Positions 8,929-23,019 of a stretch of DNA of 64,000 nucleotides are shown here, piece after piece. The notes beneath the pieces are model-generated. The model had not been told where the DNA came from. It saw only the letters and a list, made by a program, of their open reading frames with translations, and made no database searches. Source of the DNA: Promethearchaeota archaeon (lineage in GTDB: Archaea > Asgardarchaeota > Lokiarchaeia > Sigyniarchaeales > SOKP01); assembly GCA_016839555.1 (NCBI GenBank), contig JAEOUA010000008.1, forward strand, positions 192,001 through 256,000. Direction: 5' to 3'. A program made the translations under genes and the position numbers. Positions within the stretch are counted from its first letter, which is position 1, and each line of letters opens with the position of its first letter.

Positions 8929-9427
8929 TTAATAAGTGTATAAGTGTAGCTTAAATTTCGCTCTTGAATCCCCAACATATTTATCTCTTTTTAAATATGT
9001 TGAACTCTTTTTGTTCAAGAGCAAGAAAACAATATCTCGTTCCAAACATTTGAATCCTTATATAATTTTGAATAAAATTAAAAAATCTCCGTTAATTTGC
9101 AGTCTATCCTTTAACAATGGAATATCTTTAATTTTATTGGGTTCTATGATGAAAATTCTTTTAGTTATATCTTGATCTTTCAAGTGATAAACTTTATAAT
9201 ATGAAAATTGTTGTTTATACAGATTAGGTATGATTTTTTTTAATTTTTCGTTTGAAAGAATCAAAATTTGATTATCCTTAATTTCATTGTTAAAATATTT
9301 TTTCTTGATATATGCAATAGAATGTTGGAGAGTCTTTTTATTATAAGAGATATGTTTTATGTTTACTTTTAATCCATTGATTTCAGAATAAGATGAATAT
9401 TTACCAAGATTTGTCGCATTCTTTATC
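8929..9427 (-). pseudogene. 5'-truncated paralogous copy of the C-terminus of the NERD-helicase (20656-21154)
   Basis: Translates to ILSNEKL..QQFSYYKVY..IIEPNKI..LQINGD..*GFKCLERDIVFLLLNK..SRAKFKLHLYTY*; internal TAA at 9058-9060. Confidence 0.9.
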
Positions 9428-9521
9428 TATATGTCTATTCAATCGAATGCCATGTATACCAATTATTATTTAAATTATCAAGGATGCAATTTAAACATTA
9501 GCTAAAAAATTCTATTTGTAC

Positions 9522-12374
9522 TTAAAAAAATTTCTCATCGTATTTATTAAATCGTCTTTTTATGGCAGATCTTCCTCCTTCCAATTTTAGAATGGAATCA
9601 ATACAACTCTCAAATCCTCCATATTTCTCAATCTCCCCAACTTCTCTATCTTCTTTCGGTCGGGTTTCTAAATGGTATAGGAGGTCCACATCTCCCAGTG
9701 TGGGGATATTAGGATTATGAGTTGCTACGATGATTTGTCTTTTTTGTTTCACGTCTAACAAATATTTTGAAAATTTCCTTATTGATTCTTGATCTAGCTC
9801 AGAATCCGCTTGATCTATTAGAAATGGAATTCTCTCTTCTAAAAGCATGATATATAGCAGAATAGCGCATCTTTCACCTATAGATACTTTACTTATATGA
9901 TAATGCCTGCTTAAGCCGCTCCTTCTATACGAAATCACGGGTTTTGAATCGATGTATGTTTTAAATAGTTCTATTAATGAATTATCGAATCTCTTTGGGG
10001 TATCATCATTTTTTATCAGTTCTTTTAATTTGTTTATCAAGACATGGTATTTCGACGGTATAATTTGCGATATTTGTTTTGCGTGTTTATTAATTATATC
10101 ATTTATAAGCTCAAAAGGTAAAAATTTATTGTGTATGATTTTTAATACTTCTTTTTTACCTCCTGAGTGAAATTTTTTTAACCAGTTGTAATATAGACTC
10201 TGTTTAAGATTTTTTGGTCTTGCTTTCATTCTTATTTTTGCTTTAATCTCCCATTCATTAATTCTTCTTTCAATGTTTTTTACAGCCTTTCGTCTTTTTA
10301 TCCGTATTTCAAGTGTTGTGTCAAATACTTTCTTGGCTAATTCATATAATTTTGTTTCCAGGATTCGTATATTTCTTTTAATCTTTGCAAAACTTTTTAA
10401 ATCTTCTTTCAATTCTTTCTTGATATCTTTTAGATTCAATACATCTTCTTGAAGCTTCAAAAGATACTTTATATCATACATTTCTAATATATCTTCGTAT
10501 TCCTTATTTTTTTTACCATAAAATAAATTCCATTCATTTAATAAGTCTTCATAATCTTTTTTAATTCTATTCTTTTTAATCGATAATATTTCCTTTATTT
10601 TATTTTGAAGTTGAATAATATTCTCATAAAAGTTATTAAATTTATTGATTAATTTATTGATCTCCTTTTTAAAATCCGAATTAATTGAGGAAAATGCATC
10701 AGCCTTAAAACTTAGATTTAAGTTCGATATTAATCGTTCAATCCAGTCATTTATTTTTATTTTTCTACTGTTTAATTCTGAATTAAATGAGATTAATGAT
10801 TCATATTTGTCTAAATTGAGTTTTTTCAGGATTTTTGTATGGGTTTCTTTTTTTTTTATTCTTTCGTTAATATCATAAATATTATTCTTGACCTCTTGTA
10901 GATTATCAAACTCATTATATTTCTCAGCCAATATCTTTTGCATTTTGGAGATTTCAGCAATAATATTATTCCTTTCCTTTTTTTCTGAAAAATCTTCTAT
11001 AAACTTGTCAACAATGTTTAATAGAGAACTGGTTTTTTTATGTAATCGAGGGATTTCAGTTTGACTCAAAGCTTCTATTTGTATGTTTTTTATAATTTCT
11101 TCTTGTTCTATTTCATAAAAAGTTCCTTGAGGGCTTAACTTATAAAATTCTCTTATAACATCATTTTCCCATTGTATTTCTTTAGTATCTTCTTGAATTA
11201 ATAATGTATTACTAATAGCAATAATATCATCATTGTCTTTGATAAATATTACTACTTTACCTTCATTTCCTAATTGCATCAAGATTTTGTTATTAAAGAT
11301 ATCTAAACATTCTTTATCCTCCGTAATGGACATTAATCCGAATCTTATGATATCAACAATGAATGATTTACCTGTGCCACGCCCCCCGATCAATACATTT
11401 AATTCGGGATTAAATCTAAAATATTTTTCTTTAAAGAACAATCCATTTACATAAAACCCAACTATGTATGGATTTTCGCGAACCCCGTCTAGAGCCGTTT
11501 TTACCCTTGTTTCAAAATCATATTCAATCTGTTTTAATCCTGTAATATTTTTTTCAGAAAGTTTCAAATATACGGTACCAATATTACAATACTCATATAA
11601 TGGGCAGGAAGGGCAAATTGAGTAAATTTTATCAAGAAGTGATGTATCGTGTGCATCTGAGGCTTTTATCTTTGCAAGGTTTCTAAGCTCTTCTATGTCA
11701 TGGAATTTCTGTGGTGTTTCTGTAAAGGTTTTCGGACAATTTTTATGTGGATTTAGACTTTTTGCTCCTATTGATGGTTTTCCTAAATTCCATAATCTTG
11801 TTAAAGGGCTTTTAACATATGTGATTAATGCCTCTCCTGTGACGTTTTTTGTAATTCCCTCTTCTCCTAGAGGATGAGGAAAGAATCCTATTACCTAATA
11901 ATTTGAAAAATCCTTTCTGAAATCATCTTTATTTCCCGATAAGCTTTTGTCTATTATATCCCCGTGATCTTTATTATTTTCATTAGGTTGGTCTTTCTTC
12001 CTTCCTATAGCACCTAGTAAATTACTAATATTTGATTCTGAAATATTTTGACCGTTAAAGATTATTGAAAAATGAGTATTTGATGAATCCTTCAATTCTA
12101 TACAAGGGAGAAATGTTATATCCGTATCGCGTTTTGTATTTAAGTTATTAAGAATTTCAATACCGCTTTTCAAATCCTTTAAATCCTTTTGCCTATGGAC
12201 CGTTAGACCAACGAGTTGAATTTTATGTTTTATTAGAATGTCGTATAGATCATTGCAATAATCTCCAATTGGAGTTTGTTCAGGTATCTCGAAATGTAAA
12301 TGTAAATCTGACTTATAAAATTGAGAGCCAATATGTTGCTCTATTAAATTTTTATAAACTTCTTCAATTTGCAT
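9522..12374 (-). pseudogene. PHP phosphoesterase-ABC/SMC-like ATPase fusion (TrlF/Ppl-like antiviral protein) with one in-frame TAG
   Basis: ORFs 11895-12374 and 9522-11567 share a frame, separated only by TAG at 11895-11897. PHP motifs DLHLH, FPHP, SDAH; GGRGTGKS, coiled coil, SIGER, LIDQ, VATHNPN, LEGG. Confidence 0.85.
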
Positions 12375-14601: not shown

Positions 14602-14958
14602 CTTAATTTGTCAATAATAATATTACATTATAACATATATACTTTAAGATTTATATTCTATACTATTTTAGAATCAAAAATATCTAATACTTCATCGAAA
14701 CTTTTACCGCTTAACTCTTGTATCTTTTGATTTCTATTGAAATGTCTTTCAGGATTAAACATCAATCCAATGTTTTGAGTCCTATCGAATCTTACCTCCT
14801 TTATTATATAAATTATTATTTCTTTAACCTATAATACACACAATAGAAATATATTTTTATGTAACAAATAATGAATTAATAGAGAATTATATAATTCAAA
14901 TTAATAGATAGTAATTAGACTAAAATAATTAAAATAAAAAACAAAATAGGGATAAGCT

Positions 14959-16449
14959 GTGGAACCATCCATAACTAAAGTTTATAAAGCGCTAAAAGAT
15001 TCTTATAAATATATTGATTACCGTTGTGCATACTTTAAAGAAGGTAATGAATGGATAAGTATAGTGTCTGCTTTTAGATTCACACGTAAAGAATATGATA
15101 AATTAAATGAGTATCACGAAAGATTAAGGAAAATAACACATAATACAGAATGGTTTAAAATTAAATTTGAAATCTTAAACATTAAAGAATGGAGAGCAAA
15201 ATGGGAAGAAACTAAGAAAGAAGTTAACTTTTTAGAAGATAATTTTGATCTCAATTCATTAGACTTATTCATAAATATGGAGTATAATTCACATCCTCCA
15301 ATAACAAAAATTGATAGAAAATTTAATACAATTCAATTTAATGTTCGCTCCGCAAGGTATGAAGAACATCAAAAAAGGCTTGAATCTTTAAAGGAAAAAA
15401 AGGAATTAAGGAGTATGGGAGTCACATCTGTATATCCAATCATTAAAAATACTTTACAAATTGATTTTAATAAAACTTCACAAATATTCTCCATTTTCCT
15501 TTTTCCAATTTATATTAAATTTAAAGATGTTAAGTATAGGGGAGATAATCTTTCAGGTGAAATTGAATATCATAAGCTTTTTTCTAACTCTAACCTTATA
15601 GTTAAACATGATTTAAGAGGGACTAACGAAGGAATTATAAAAAATCTAAGATTGGAAGAAAAAATAAATTTAGATCAAGATTATTACACTACTCAATTCG
15701 ATATTAAAATCGATAAAGAATTACATCAAATCGAAGAAAATTTTTCTCAATTCATATTTAGCATTTACTTAAGCCCTTTAAATATGGAATTAACAGACTA
15801 TAAAATATTTGCTTATGATTCAGAACGGACTCAAGAGAAAAGAATATATGAGGAAGAAATAAAAAGTGTCGAGATCCTTAAGGAATCTCAAGATTTATTC
15901 ATTAAACTAAATATTAAGGACTTTCAATTATCTGAATATGATGAACTCATCAATTTAATTAATAGATCTGCTTATAATGACAAATACTATAGAATCCTCC
16001 CAATCTTACTCAGATGCCTTTTTGAAAACCTTTTATATGATATTTTTCAAACAGGTCTTAATGTAAAGCACACTGAATTTTTCTTTCTAAAAAACCAATA
16101 TAGATCAAGGGACTTTTCTCAGTTAATCGCACTATTAAATATTTTGAAGGATAAGGATTTTAAATTATATCATAGAGATACTCTTAACCAGAATATGATA
16201 GAAACTTTAAAAGAAATCCAAAAGTTTGGTAATTGGAGTGTTCACGATATTATAAGGCAAGTAGATAGAGATTTTGCTGACAATTGCGAACAAAAAGTAA
16301 ATAGAGTGTTATTAGCACTTTTAACATTATATAAGAAACTACAAGGTAAAAATTTAGAAATAAAGGATGAAGACACACTTAATAGAATTAAAAAAACCCT
16401 TAATCTTGTCAATCTTGATGATTCATTTAAATCCAAAATTACAAGATAG
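14959..16449 (+). CDS. Protein with C-terminal HEPN/DUF4145-like helical domain; in frame with downstream SAVED-CD-NTase across a TAG
   Basis: LINLIN..ILLRCLFENLL..FSQLI..IQKFGNWSVH pattern. Confidence 0.55.
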   Translation: MEPSITKVYKALKDSYKYIDYRCAYFKEGNEWISIVSAFRFTRKEYDKLNEYHERLRKITHNTEWFKIKFEILNIKEWRAKWEETKKEVNFLEDNFDLNSLDLFINMEYNSHPPITKIDRKFNTIQFNVRSARYEEHQKRLESLKEKKELRSMGVTSVYPIIKNTLQIDFNKTSQIFSIFLFPIYIKFKDVKYRGDNLSGEIEYHKLFSNSNLIVKHDLRGTNEGIIKNLRLEEKINLDQDYYTTQFDIKIDKELHQIEENFSQFIFSIYLSPLNMELTDYKIFAYDSERTQEKRIYEEEIKSVEILKESQDLFIKLNIKDFQLSEYDELINLINRSAYNDKYYRILPILLRCLFENLLYDIFQTGLNVKHTEFFFLKNQYRSRDFSQLIALLNILKDKDFKLYHRDTLNQNMIETLKEIQKFGNWSVHDIIRQVDRDFADNCEQKVNRVLLALLTLYKKLQGKNLEIKDEDTLNRIKKTLNLVNLDDSFKSKITR

Positions 16450-17879: not shown

Positions 17880-19898
17880 TTAAATTTCCTCTATTTTCTC
17901 TTTTGGTTTATAGGTAATTTCATAAAAATAAAGAAATTGGATTAAATCATCTTTATTGAAAGGTATAAATCGTTTATTAGTTGCTTTACATAAATTTAAA
18001 GCTTCTGAAATAAAATTATGTGAAGTCGGTTTGTTATTAGCAAAAAAAATTATTTTTACTGTATTTCTTTGAGTTAATTTATTAACTTGGATAGAAGCAT
18101 TGTTATATTGGTTTTGTGTATTCAGATTAGTTGCTTTTAAAACTATGGCTTTTCCTTCATTTTCAGAGATCCAATAGCAATCTGCTAATTCTTCGGCACA
18201 ATGTGGTAATACTTCTTTTCCTAAAGGAAAAGAAAAAAGTTTAGTAAGACATATTTTATTGGGATATTTCCAACATTCTTCACAATCTTTAGCAGTAATT
18301 TCTTTACCACACTTTTCTTTTAATTTTTCAATCTTTTCTTGAATAATCGAATACTTTTTTGGACCAATTTCTTTTATAAACGATTTTTGTGTCTTTAAAA
18401 AATTAAAGTATTTCTTTTTTATTTTCTCATCTTCTAAATCTAGATACTCTAATTTTACAGATTGATAAAAAGGATTTTTGTATTCCACTCTATTTAGCTC
18501 ATTGTCAAGAGGGCATAACTCAGGATCTCCGCACCATTGGATTTTAATTACAAATTCTCCTTGGTTAAGGTTTATAATCTCTTTTCTCAACCCCTCTGAA
18601 GGAACATCATATCGATTTCCATTAATTAACGTTTTACAACGGAAGGAAGTTAAATATTGTTCATCAACATCCCATTTAAATTCAATATATTTTTTTCCTT
18701 CAATTTCTTCAAATTTAGGTTCTGGAAACTGAAAAGATTTAACAGGAAAAACAATTGTAAAATTTGGCTGATCTAGAACATTAAGGTTTATGCCCATAAA
18801 ATTATTAACTTTATCCGTTATATCAATCAAGGAGCCCCCTTCACCCTGAAATTCAATATTCTCAAAATCTCGATGTGAAAATTTCATATCATGATATTGA
18901 TCTAAATGGTCAAAGAAAATAAAGTTGATTAGATCAGCGCATAATATTCTTGCATAATCAAAATTTCCCCTTATTTTCTCCTTAAATTTTTTATTAAAAA
19001 AATAAGGTGGGACAGAGTAAACAAATTCAAGTATATAGTTATTAAAATTATATATTAGAAATGGATTGATTTCTAGCTTATTTTCTAAATCATTAAAGGA
19101 TAAAATCTCTTCAAATAAGCCAATCCGATTGTGTTTTGAAAAAATAGGTTCTTTCTGTTCAAGATCAGCATCAGTAAAATCAATTCTAAAATATAAAATC
19201 TCATTTATGCCATAATATTCTGAAGGTTTATTTATCCCATTTGGATTATAAGCCACTATTCTTACACGATTATTATTATAAGGCTCAAATAGAAATGATT
19301 CTTTAGTATCATTAGCTAGTTTTAATAATGTCTTGAAATTCCAATATGGACAAAAGGATGAAAATATCTCTCTTCCTTTACTCGTTAAATCAATAGTAAC
19401 TATGGTTCCCGCTAATAAATCAGTAGAACGATAGATCAAATCCAAATCTTCGAGTAATGCTAATAAAAAATTTGCCTTATAATCAGGTCTAATAGGAATA
19501 AGATTAAAAAATGTATCATCAAATGGATCTCCTATATGCTTCTTATGGTATTCTTCAATATAATTGAGTAATTTACATAATAAAATAATGTAATTTAGTT
19601 TATGTTCAATAAACTTTTCATAATAAATATAGGTCTTTAATCTAAGTCCATTATTGATTGTTAAATCTTTTTTTTCAAGTCGTTCCAAACCAATTTTTAA
19701 TTGATCATTGATTTCTAACTTTTTTGGTTTGGGAATCTTAAGTGTCCTTAAAGAATGATGAAGATATTGCAAATTTTTTAAAAATTTCTCACAATAGACC
19801 TTGATTACTTCTATTTCCTCTTTTATAAAATCATCAATTTCAAATTCAAAAATAGTTTTGGGCTCAAAAATAGAATCTATATGATTTTTAAAATCCAT
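17880..19898 (-). CDS. Large hypothetical protein with C-terminal Cys cluster and putative PD-(D/E)XK nuclease
   Basis: 672 aa; C..DCEEC..C..PH..ELADC..IVLK..Q at the C-terminus. Confidence 0.5.
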   Translation of the reverse strand: MDFKNHIDSIFEPKTIFEFEIDDFIKEEIEVIKVYCEKFLKNLQYLHHSLRTLKIPKPKKLEINDQLKIGLERLEKKDLTINNGLRLKTYIYYEKFIEHKLNYIILLCKLLNYIEEYHKKHIGDPFDDTFFNLIPIRPDYKANFLLALLEDLDLIYRSTDLLAGTIVTIDLTSKGREIFSSFCPYWNFKTLLKLANDTKESFLFEPYNNNRVRIVAYNPNGINKPSEYYGINEILYFRIDFTDADLEQKEPIFSKHNRIGLFEEILSFNDLENKLEINPFLIYNFNNYILEFVYSVPPYFFNKKFKEKIRGNFDYARILCADLINFIFFDHLDQYHDMKFSHRDFENIEFQGEGGSLIDITDKVNNFMGINLNVLDQPNFTIVFPVKSFQFPEPKFEEIEGKKYIEFKWDVDEQYLTSFRCKTLINGNRYDVPSEGLRKEIINLNQGEFVIKIQWCGDPELCPLDNELNRVEYKNPFYQSVKLEYLDLEDEKIKKKYFNFLKTQKSFIKEIGPKKYSIIQEKIEKLKEKCGKEITAKDCEECWKYPNKICLTKLFSFPLGKEVLPHCAEELADCYWISENEGKAIVLKATNLNTQNQYNNASIQVNKLTQRNTVKIIFFANNKPTSHNFISEALNLCKATNKRFIPFNKDDLIQFLYFYEITYKPKEKIEEI

Positions 19899-20655: not shown

Positions 20656-22497
20656 TTAGTATGTATAAAGATGTAGTTTAAATTTTGCTCTTGAACCTCC
20701 AATATATTTATCTCTCTTTAAATCTACTGATGTGTTTTTATTTAACAATAAGAAAACGATATCTCGTTCCAAACCTTTAAACCCTTGTATTGTTTTAAAG
20801 AGAGTCAAATAGTCTCCATTAATTTGTAGTCTCTTTCTTAATAAGGGGAGCTCCCTAATTTTATTGGGTTCTATGATGATAATCCTATTTACTGTACCTT
20901 GATCTTTCAGATAATAAACTTTATAGTACGAAAACTGTTGTCTGTATGCATTAGGTAAAATTTTATTCAATTTTTCATTTGAAAGAATTAAAATTTGGTC
21001 ATCCTTAATTCCATTATTCAAATATTTTTTCTTAATATATGCAATTGAATAGTGAAGAGCTTTTTTTCCAGAAGAGAAATGTTTTGCGCTCACTTTTAAT
21101 CCATTAATTTCAGAATAAGAAGAATAATTACCCAAATGTGTAGCATTTTTTATCCATTTTCCTATTTCAACCGTATTTCTGAGATTTTTATCTAATACAA
21201 TTAAATCTTGATCAGGGTTCATTCCAAATTGCGTTGAAATAAATTTATTAGTAAAAAGATTTTGAGATTCATCAAAAAAGATATATAGTATTGATTTTTT
21301 CTGATTTTTGAGCATTCTTCTAATAAGTGATGCAAGATCCGGATGAATATCCTGGGCTTCATCTATTAAAATTGCATCATAAATTTGTATTTCTGAAATA
21401 TCATCGAGGTTTTCGTTTAAAATATTTGCACTTTTTTCGAATTGAAAATTATTATTAAAGAAATATAATTGCTGCAAATCTTTCCCCCCTAGTAATGCTT
21501 TAGCAAGAATTTTTATAAGACTATGCAAAGTTAATATCGATATTTTTGTGGCCAATTTATCTGAATCAATATTTAATTTTTCGCATAGATACGATTCAAT
21601 TGAATCTCTCAATTCTTTATTAAAGCATAAAAAGAGAGTTTTTTTATCTTCTTTATATAATTGTATAGCTTTTTTCATTGCTATAAAAGTTTTTCCCGAA
21701 CCCGCGCTTCCTTTGAACATGCAATGCTTTTTCTGAGAGAGGGATGTTAACAAATAATCTTGAACTTGATTTAACTTTTCTAACTGTTGTTCTCTGATTT
21801 CATAGTAATGTTTTATATTTACATAAGTATTTATAGAAGGTGTGATAAGTTTTAAGAAAAAGGGTTTTATATTGGGATTAAAAACTCGATTGTTATAGAC
21901 CTCTAATAACGAAATTAAATAGTCTTCAAGTGGAGAAGGACCTATTTTCCCTATTCGTTTCCAATTATTTTCATCCTCTAAATCAGAGTAATCAAAAATT
22001 TTTGAAGGGGGTAAAGAGAGGGAAAAATCGTCTTTTATTTGGCAATCGGGAAAGAAGCACCCACAATTATAAGAAAGTGGAAAATCTAATCGCCCATTAA
22101 CATTTTTTAATAAATGGTTTTTATCAGCATTCTGGGAAGCTTTATTGATATATAAGTCTTTAATAAAATACATTGATTTCTGAGCTTGCCGTAATGGATT
22201 TGCTTTAAGCTGATGTTTTCTATTTGAAAGTAGTTCCCTTGAGTGATAACGATTATTTTCGAAAGTGATTAAGCCACCTTTTGCCTCGATTATCAAGAAG
22301 CCATAATTCGCATTAAAAATAAGAAAATCTGCCTCTCCGTGCTCTTTTCTTAAATCGCTTGCCCATTCGATTGAGTGCCATGCATACCAATCATTACTTA
22401 AATCATCCAACAAGGTATAAAATTTGATTTCTGATCTTGGTAGGTTTTTACTTCGTTGTTGTAATTCTTGTAATGTTTCTGGATATTTATGTACCAT
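20656..22497 (-). CDS. NERD nuclease domain-SF1 (UvrD-like/DUF2075) helicase
   Basis: GEADFLI..LIIEAKGG (NERD); GSAGSGKT, ILIDEAQD, DESQ, NLRNT, FKGLE, SRAK helicase motifs. Confidence 0.9.
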   Translation of the reverse strand: MVHKYPETLQELQQRSKNLPRSEIKFYTLLDDLSNDWYAWHSIEWASDLRKEHGEADFLIFNANYGFLIIEAKGGLITFENNRYHSRELLSNRKHQLKANPLRQAQKSMYFIKDLYINKASQNADKNHLLKNVNGRLDFPLSYNCGCFFPDCQIKDDFSLSLPPSKIFDYSDLEDENNWKRIGKIGPSPLEDYLISLLEVYNNRVFNPNIKPFFLKLITPSINTYVNIKHYYEIREQQLEKLNQVQDYLLTSLSQKKHCMFKGSAGSGKTFIAMKKAIQLYKEDKKTLFLCFNKELRDSIESYLCEKLNIDSDKLATKISILTLHSLIKILAKALLGGKDLQQLYFFNNNFQFEKSANILNENLDDISEIQIYDAILIDEAQDIHPDLASLIRRMLKNQKKSILYIFFDESQNLFTNKFISTQFGMNPDQDLIVLDKNLRNTVEIGKWIKNATHLGNYSSYSEINGLKVSAKHFSSGKKALHYSIAYIKKKYLNNGIKDDQILILSNEKLNKILPNAYRQQFSYYKVYYLKDQGTVNRIIIIEPNKIRELPLLRKRLQINGDYLTLFKTIQGFKGLERDIVFLLLNKNTSVDLKRDKYIGGSRAKFKLHLYTY

Positions 22498-22605
22498 TAA
22501 AAACGCCTAACATTTAATTTCTTGCTATATATAATTATATTCTAACCCTTCTATTTAAATGAAAAACTCCTATTAATTAGTAATTTAATGATTATTCTTG
22601 GATAC

Positions 22606-22755
22606 GCAGCACCCCCATTTACATAGGGAAGATTTTTTCCCTAAAATTTTAAAGAAAGAATTCTTCATATTACCCCTGCATACATAGGGAAAAGCAAATA
22701 TACTATTTTTTTTCGTTCTTTAAATACGCTACACCCCTATATGCATAAGGAAAAA
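22606..22755 (-). CRISPR. Degenerate orphan mini-array: 3 x 28-nt type I-E-like repeats, 2 x 33-nt spacers
   Basis: Repeats start at 22606, 22667 and 22728 (period exactly 61). Plus-strand GCAGCACCCCCATTTACATAGGGAAGAT / ATATTACCCCTGCATACATAGGGAAAAG / GCTACACCCCTATATGCATAAGGAAAAA, with an internal CCC..GGG palindrome. Confidence 0.6.
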
Positions 22756-23019
22756 ACTATAATTTTTATTAGAATTACCAATTACACTATACATTTTAGT
22801 TATTTTTAATCTCAGTATTTGGATGAGCGGAAACTTCATTGTTTATATTTATATAAATCTATGTTTTTTTATTAGAAAAAGACTATTTAAAAATCGGGTT
22901 TTTAATATAAAAAAGAGTGATTAGAGTGTCTTCCGTCGCAAGGAATCAATGTAAAGAGTTAGAAGTTTTTACATCTGCGTATTATGTGCTCTGGACACTC
23001 TATGAACACTCCCCTTATT

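Follow-up and report, generated by a model that had tools for sequence, protein, structure and literature searches.

The window analysed here is a stretch of 64,000 nt from a Promethearchaeota archaeon (C7:192001-256000 of a 3.74-Mb assembly in 12 contigs, 29.5% GC and 92% complete). On its minus strand, at 22605-22755, it carries an array of three imperfect-palindrome repeats of 29 nt with two unique 32-nt spacers, at a period of 61/61 nt. The array lies in a non-coding region of approximately 1 kb that separates the start of a helicase gene (22497) from the next credible gene to the right (23497 onwards). Apart from the repeat itself, this 999-nt intergenic region had no homologue in 60 relatives. 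The features of the locus are, in the direction in which the array is read:

22756..22905, minus strand: AT-rich leader-like DNA upstream of repeat 1; a by-eye likeness to bona fide leaders, without statistical support.
22727..22755, minus strand: repeat 1, leader-proximal, 29 nt; a 7-bp stem including one U.G pair; 40.0 bits.
22695..22726, minus strand: spacer 1, 32 nt, 16% GC, unique; no informative match in its own genome, phages or plasmids.
22666..22694, minus strand: repeat 2, the most decayed copy; stem down to 5 bp, handle GTAATATG; 35.7 bits.
22634..22665, minus strand: spacer 2, 32 nt, 19% GC; elsewhere in the genome it matches best a stretch of 19 identical nt, at chance level.
22605..22633, minus strand: repeat 3, distal, closest to the helicase; a 7-bp stem including U.G pairs; 39.8 bits.
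20656..22497, minus strand: intact gene, outside the array, for a 613-aa protein with NERD and SF1 helicase domains (Pfam helicase families, NERD, PADLOC).

The array is upstream of the helicase gene and co-oriented with it, the start codon (22497, minus strand) being approximately 107 nt from the distal repeat. The N-terminal 230 amino acids of the helicase match NERD (PF08378, E 6.8e-9), and its best PADLOC model is RTasNERD-Hel, the reverse transcriptase-associated NERD-helicase of DRT systems (E 8.4e-37). A Pfam scan of the neighbouring ORFs found no reverse transcriptase among them. Other defence-type genes nearby are a SAVED-domain protein (Pfam) and an HNH effector-like gene (PADLOC), and at 8932-9528 on the minus strand lies a second, pseudogenised copy of the C-terminus of this helicase, 67% identical in amino acid sequence to residues 413-613 of the intact protein and interrupted by eight stop codons. 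Given these neighbours, the array sits in a chromosomal defence island, and not in a recognisable virus or plasmid.

A repeat search of the window located the unit in direct orientation at 22602-22630, 22663-22691 and 22724-22752, the starts being 61 and 61 nt apart. We placed the repeat boundaries at 22605-22633, 22666-22694 and 22727-22755, which is the register of the bona fide 29-nt repeat family described below. On the minus strand, the three copies read TTCCCTATGTAAATGGGGGTG, TTCCCTATGTATGCAGGGGTA and TTCCTTATGCATATAGGGGTG. Each contains TTCC(C/T)TATG, a 4-nt loop and GGGGT(G/A), and folds as a hairpin of 5-7 bp whose U.G pairs form on the minus strand only. Allowing up to two mismatches, the motif occurred six times in the 3.74-Mb genome, three of them at the array, while a reversed control pattern did not occur at all, indicating that the repeats are real and not a product of chance. 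Similarly, the three copies scored 36-40 bits with a covariance model, compared to 15 bits for the next-best match in the 64-kb window. The three-copy repeat is thus real, far beyond chance. The first-pass annotation, made from the letters of this DNA, had described such an array, and we retain it with boundaries redrawn to 29-nt repeats and 32-nt spacers. It had also anticipated that automated finders would miss the array; indeed, Tandem Repeats Finder reported nothing there, and an Rfam search of the region returned no match. However, the ATACGC that it had noted as a flank common to repeats 1 and 3 is the repeat's own 3' end (GCGTAT on the minus strand).

Like CRISPR arrays in general, the locus has at least three direct repeats of 23-50 nt and unique spacers of similar length. 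It does not have the identical or near-identical repeats that are also expected of one array, as the pairwise identity among the three is 19-21/29, and we therefore classed it as a decayed derivative rather than a working array. Homologous spacers, which would have pointed to a simple tandem duplication, had been raised as an objection to the CRISPR reading. The two spacers match at 8/32 positions in register, compared to a background mean of 11/32 for AT-rich 32-mers, and are not homologous to each other.

Several further elements surround the repeats. At approximately 22540-22567 (minus strand), a possible fourth terminal repeat vestige can be seen by eye, agreeing with approximately 16/28 consensus positions including a GGG run; it follows the third repeat by 66 nt, not 61 nt, and is below the covariance-model threshold. 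A 12/13 inverted repeat connects the two spacers (22648-22660 and 22712-22724), for which we roughly estimate a random chance of about 1%, and an extra inverted half-site, TTCCCT, lies at 22637-22642, beyond the distal repeat. Aligning 22756..22905 with five bona fide leaders brought out some positions in common; a profile built from these five leaders did not score the array site above genomic background, and its top match, on C10, was coding DNA. Approximately 160 nt upstream of the leader side of the array, a GC-richer segment (22915-23011) can form, on either strand, a long closed stem that encloses a further hairpin (z -3.1 and -2.9); Rfam gave no match for it, and the 60 relatives no homologue.

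To place the repeat, we searched for its relatives. In a pattern search of 161 genomes of the class, the motif was clustered in only one other genome, that of the same-genus Promethearchaeota archaeon isolate BC1 (G005; SHMU01000068.1). This sister array (C68:10323-10719, minus strand) consists of seven repeats that recur every 60-61 nt and are separated by unique AT-rich spacers; its terminal repeat is strongly degenerate, as in real arrays. We aligned the ten copies, three from the window and seven from G005, and built a covariance model from the alignment. Running the model over 151 genomes of the class revealed long, regular and homogeneous arrays with a 61-nt period in eight further genomes. 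Those retrieved include G038, G037, G048, G049 and G052, all of which carry cas7e. Their repeat is ATTGTCCCCACGYATGTGGGGGTGWACCG, with variants ATTGTCCCCACG(T/C)ATGTGGGGGTG(A/T)ACCG, and in G038 a complete cas3-cse1-cse2-cas7e-cas5e-cas6e-cas1-cas2 operon precedes the array (C163), which starts 270 nt beyond cas2. Solitary matches of the model in other genomes all fell within genes, one of them enoyl-CoA-hydratase-like, and we dismissed them as chance. Searching GTDB genomes and IMG/VR for tandem motifs of the TATG variant brought up only unrelated tandem repeats.

The three window repeats agree with the Asgard family repeat at 19-20 of 29 positions. Across the window and G005 copies, most agree at 19-23/29, the degenerate terminal repeat of G005 reaching 14/29, whereas random 29-mers from the window averaged 6.7 positions with a maximum of 16. 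The geometry agrees as well: repeats of 28-29 nt, spacers of 32-33 nt and a 61-nt period are those of the operon-attached type I-E arrays, in which 29 + 32 nt make up the period, a 7-bp G/C-rich stem with a 4-nt loop occupies repeat positions 5-22, and an 8-nt handle forms the 3' end. The window repeats have the stem and loop at these same positions and also share the 5'-terminal ATT and the GTG...CG of the handle. They resemble the operon-adjacent repeats in sequence and in structure. The related Asgard arrays differ from that of the window: their repeats are identical and number in the dozens, their spacers are normal in composition, and cas genes adjoin them. The window has three heterogeneous repeats with altered handles and a stem variant, CCCTAC/GTAGGG, in which a C-G to U-A double change has taken place at the fourth pair.

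This stem variant is also found elsewhere. Several metagenome contigs carry homogeneous arrays of TTCCCTACGTATGTAGGGGT with a 61-nt period (L123 and L124 among them, whose arrays reach their contig ends and were compared with the window array by repeat and period), and the same repeat is present in the bacterium Ligilactobacillus equi DSM 15833 with cse1-cse2-cas7e-cas5 on the same contig. The L. equi array resembles that of the window in its 61-nt period and in mixing two handle classes within one array; it differs in that its repeats are homogeneous within each class and Cascade genes adjoin it. The window repeat is thus established as a diverged member of the type I-E family that serves complete systems both among related Asgard archaea and in bacteria. 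The type I-E-like reading of the first-pass annotation is thereby supported, as membership follows from comparison with arrays that carry their cas genes, and the match to a known CRISPR repeat family that the annotation had called for was found.

Two genomes of the same family, G017 and G125, have type I-E-type arrays with no Cas6e or Cas7e match beside them, in assemblies that may be incomplete. That of G017 (C227:1440-1600) consists of two perfect repeats and a degenerate third in a 1.5-kb non-coding gap, and that of G125 (C19, approximately 18036-18495) of eight perfect repeats a few kb from topoisomerase VI genes.

We searched the genome of the window for the genes that such an array requires. 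Pfam searches for Cas1, Cas6e and Cas7e were negative in this genome and positive in control genomes, and tblastn with the nine type I-E Cas proteins of G038 returned nothing at E < 0.4 in this genome or on the G005 contig. Similarly, tblastn detected no cas pseudogenes near the window array or the G005 array. Cognate type I-E cas genes were thus not found in the 92%-complete assembly, which extends to the genome what had been noted for the 64 kb, namely that the array is without cas genes. Type I-E is also scarce in the relatives, Cas7e being present in none of seven genomes of the genus, in two of 134 further genomes of the family and in eight of 161 in the class.

The genome's own CRISPR-Cas system is type III. 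Its locus (C6:1-15817) encodes a Cas10 palm, three large RAMP proteins or fusions, a Csx1 HEPN-CARF protein and two NE0113-type CARF proteins, and arrays of 19 repeats (at the end of the contig) and of 5 repeats enclose it, both built from an unrelated 37-nt repeat. No Cas1 was detected by Pfam anywhere in the 92%-complete genome, this locus included.

Among the parts of the window repeats, the handle has diverged most. The 8-nt 3' handle of a repeat becomes the 5' handle of the next crRNA and must be recognised by Cascade. In every window copy, the handle differs from the family GTG(A/T)ACCG at three of eight positions; GTG..GCG is kept in two copies, and the third reads GTAATATG. Two handle classes are present in the window and G005 arrays alike, as in the working L. 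equi array, leaving the ancestral handle uncertain. The stem is an intact 7 bp, with U.G pairs, in two copies, and is two pairs short (5 bp) in the middle repeat. Adaptation duplicates the leader-proximal repeat; the heterogeneity of the repeats must therefore have arisen after the last acquisition.

The spacers of the window and G005 arrays have a GC content of 0.12-0.31, compared to 0.345 in the active-looking type III array of the genome, and the two in the window (16-19% GC, below the genome average) contain homopolymer runs. BLAST searches against phage and plasmid collections returned no match for them. The best non-self match of spacer 2 is 19 nt exact in a HEAT-repeat host gene on another contig. 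We rejected this gene as a target, since the match does not stand out from the null (of 120 random AT-rich 32-mers, 5 did equally well) and no repeat relics accompany it. Overall, the window spacers look like intergenic filler and gave no informative match in their own genome or in the phage and plasmid collections.

The first-pass annotation had proposed looking for the same repeats upstream of homologous NERD-helicase genes. In six genomes with homologues of the helicase (36-54% identity), the repeat motif was absent within 1.5 kb upstream. In G005, the array lies on contig C68 and the helicase homologue on contig C40. The G005 array is inside a segment of approximately 10 kb (about C68:4553-14650) that breaks the alaS neighbourhood, which in the genome of the window is colinear and unbroken at C5:300-306 kb. 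The genes that flank it there, which are unrelated to those of the window, encode a 1635-aa protein without assigned function, a PLD-like nuclease and a CBS-like protein. The linkage of array and helicase is not conserved. The window and G005 arrays therefore have a common repeat ancestry, and not a common context.

The same G005 insertion also contains a 540-aa ORF without a Pfam or PADLOC match and is followed by a duplicated N-terminal fragment of alaS (14656-15135); no integrase was recognised in it (C68:4553-14650). On C40, approximately 250-380 nt upstream of the G005 helicase homologue, lies a tRNA-like sequence with an apparent intron and a 3' CCA, which could mark a tRNA-linked integration site.

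We think it probable that the array is an ordinary relic, what is left of a type I-E array after the loss of its cas genes, now being worn down by mutation. An active type I-E system, with ATTTTCCCTAYGTA..TAGGGGTG..CG as its repeat variant, would once have been present in an ancestor or on a mobile island, its leader on the 22756+ side and its array read on the minus strand. Adaptation would then have ceased and the cas genes been lost, after which the repeats would have drifted by approximately 20% each, mainly from G/C to A/T, with most change in the handle that Cascade must recognise. The array would yield no working crRNA today, and its place before the helicase gene would be an accident of island shuffling. 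Among the origins that had been suggested for the array at the outset, this is the one that the analysis favours; an element-borne mini-array or a regulatory crRNA drawing on host Cascade, and an RNA partner of the helicase, are disfavoured.

Orphan arrays without cognate cas genes are known from Enterococcus faecalis CRISPR2 (PMC4580645) and from lost-locus remnants (bioRxiv 10.1101/2023.03.03.530964), and the degenerate ones among the latter resemble the window array further in that their repeats decayed after locus loss. E. faecalis CRISPR2 has intact repeats and functions once Cas9 is supplied (PMC4580645), unlike the window array, whose repeats have drifted by approximately 20% in a lineage largely without type I-E. 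Three points sit less easily with a relic. The 61-nt phase is exact despite a repeat divergence of approximately 20%, a mild difficulty, as by rough estimate a few indels should have arisen and none did, although two periods alone do not reach significance. Two species of one genus both retain such arrays. Finally, 8% of the genome is missing, and a small type I-E locus could be unassembled.

The retention of hairpins and phase could instead reflect exaptation, to which we give a small but real chance. The array would then be a decoy for the Cas6e or Cascade of type I-E systems that the island meets, or a cis element leading into the defence gene. Several observations are consistent with this. 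Over the ten aligned copies, the stems pair in 91% of cells; every one-sided stem change is U.G-compatible on the gene's strand (minus) only; and, by hand count in the same alignment, stem G/C changed in 4 of 63 cells compared to 11 of 45 for non-stem G/C. The handle and the spacers show no sign of constraint, in contrast to the stem G/C positions and the 61-nt phase, which are preserved. In addition, both arrays are co-oriented with the next downstream gene, and that of G005 is carried in the approximately 10-kb insertion beside alaS. RNA anti-CRISPRs that mimic repeats (Racrs) are established in phages and plasmids, and they resemble the window array in keeping the Cas6-binding hairpin without cas genes (PMC10651486).

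However, covariation in the stems was no higher than in shuffled controls. Orthology between window and G005 repeats is likewise without support: two registers tie at 66/87 with spacer identity at background, and with no register standing out, orthology, and hence selection, cannot be shown. The rarity of type I-E (0/7 in the genus, 2/134 in the family) leaves little for a decoy to target, and the downstream genes differ between this genome and G005. Racrs, as a rule, occur as single units close to acr genes on viruses or plasmids (PMC10651486). The window, in contrast, has a three-unit array with canonical-length spacers, in a chromosomal defence island of a lineage poor in type I-E and not in a recognisable virus or plasmid. 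We accordingly consider it unlikely that the heterogeneous arrays of this genus are alive as guide-free decoys or structured leaders, with selection keeping their Cas6e-type hairpins and 61-nt phase.

The array could also still be working in trans, its crRNAs loaded by a type I-E Cascade from unassembled DNA or from a co-resident element, in defence, in conflict between elements or in regulation. The intact geometry, with two of three hairpins intact, would allow this, and the cas-less arrays with perfect repeats in the family assemblies G125 (eight repeats) and G017 (two to three) offer a parallel. Regulatory mini-arrays are moreover known in type I-E loci (bioRxiv 10.1101/2023.03.03.530964), and such CreA-like RNAs, like the window array, consist of few units with degenerate repeats and lie upstream of a gene. 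They are found inside class 1 cas loci, with spacers that match a nearby promoter with a PAM (bioRxiv 10.1101/2023.03.03.530964), whereas the window array has no cas locus and its best partial spacer match is the HEAT-repeat gene on another contig. The host Cascade that the first-pass annotation had invoked for use in trans was not found in this genome, whose system is type III, and no type I-E cas genes were found in the 12 contigs or in the genus. With the handle altered in all three copies, and with spacers of 16-19% GC that have no target in phage or plasmid collections and a self-match within the null, we regard a working array as distinctly unlikely.

Considered apart from CRISPR, the repeats could be protein-binding sites: operators or upstream activating sites through which a dimeric regulator would control the helicase gene, or else iterons or the ends of a mobile element. 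They form three 16-bp imperfect palindromes (CCCYAT-N4-ATRGGG) with dyad symmetry, approximately six helical turns apart, located upstream of a promoter-like AT-rich stretch and accompanied by the half-site TTCCCT noted above. Yet the units align with cas-attached CRISPR repeats over 29 nt, the asymmetric 3' handle included, and this homology makes an independent origin very unlikely. The motif is also missing upstream of the six helicase homologues, and no inverted set of sites marks an element end in the window. Operators, iterons, ORB-like sites and transposon ends were therefore dropped in view of the G005 sister array and the bona fide type I-E arrays. The suggestion that the array supplies guide or scaffold RNAs to the NERD-helicase as a dedicated partner, for which only adjacency and co-orientation speak, is barely credible, given that the homologous loci of six genomes are without repeats and that in G005 the array is in an unrelated island on another contig than the helicase homologue.

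Taken as a relic, the array belongs to a well-known class, as orphan and degenerate arrays and lost-locus remnants have been described before, and it adds one case to them. It makes the small point that relic arrays persist in defence islands, where standard finders miss them. For the curation of Asgard spacers, relic pseudo-spacers of this kind should not serve virus-host assignment. If the hairpins were under selection, the locus would instead be a case of repeat exaptation in archaea. As a decayed type I-E array, it would indicate that a lineage now equipped with type III once held a bacterial-style type I-E system, or acquired one on islands, and would thereby document the turnover of CRISPR types.
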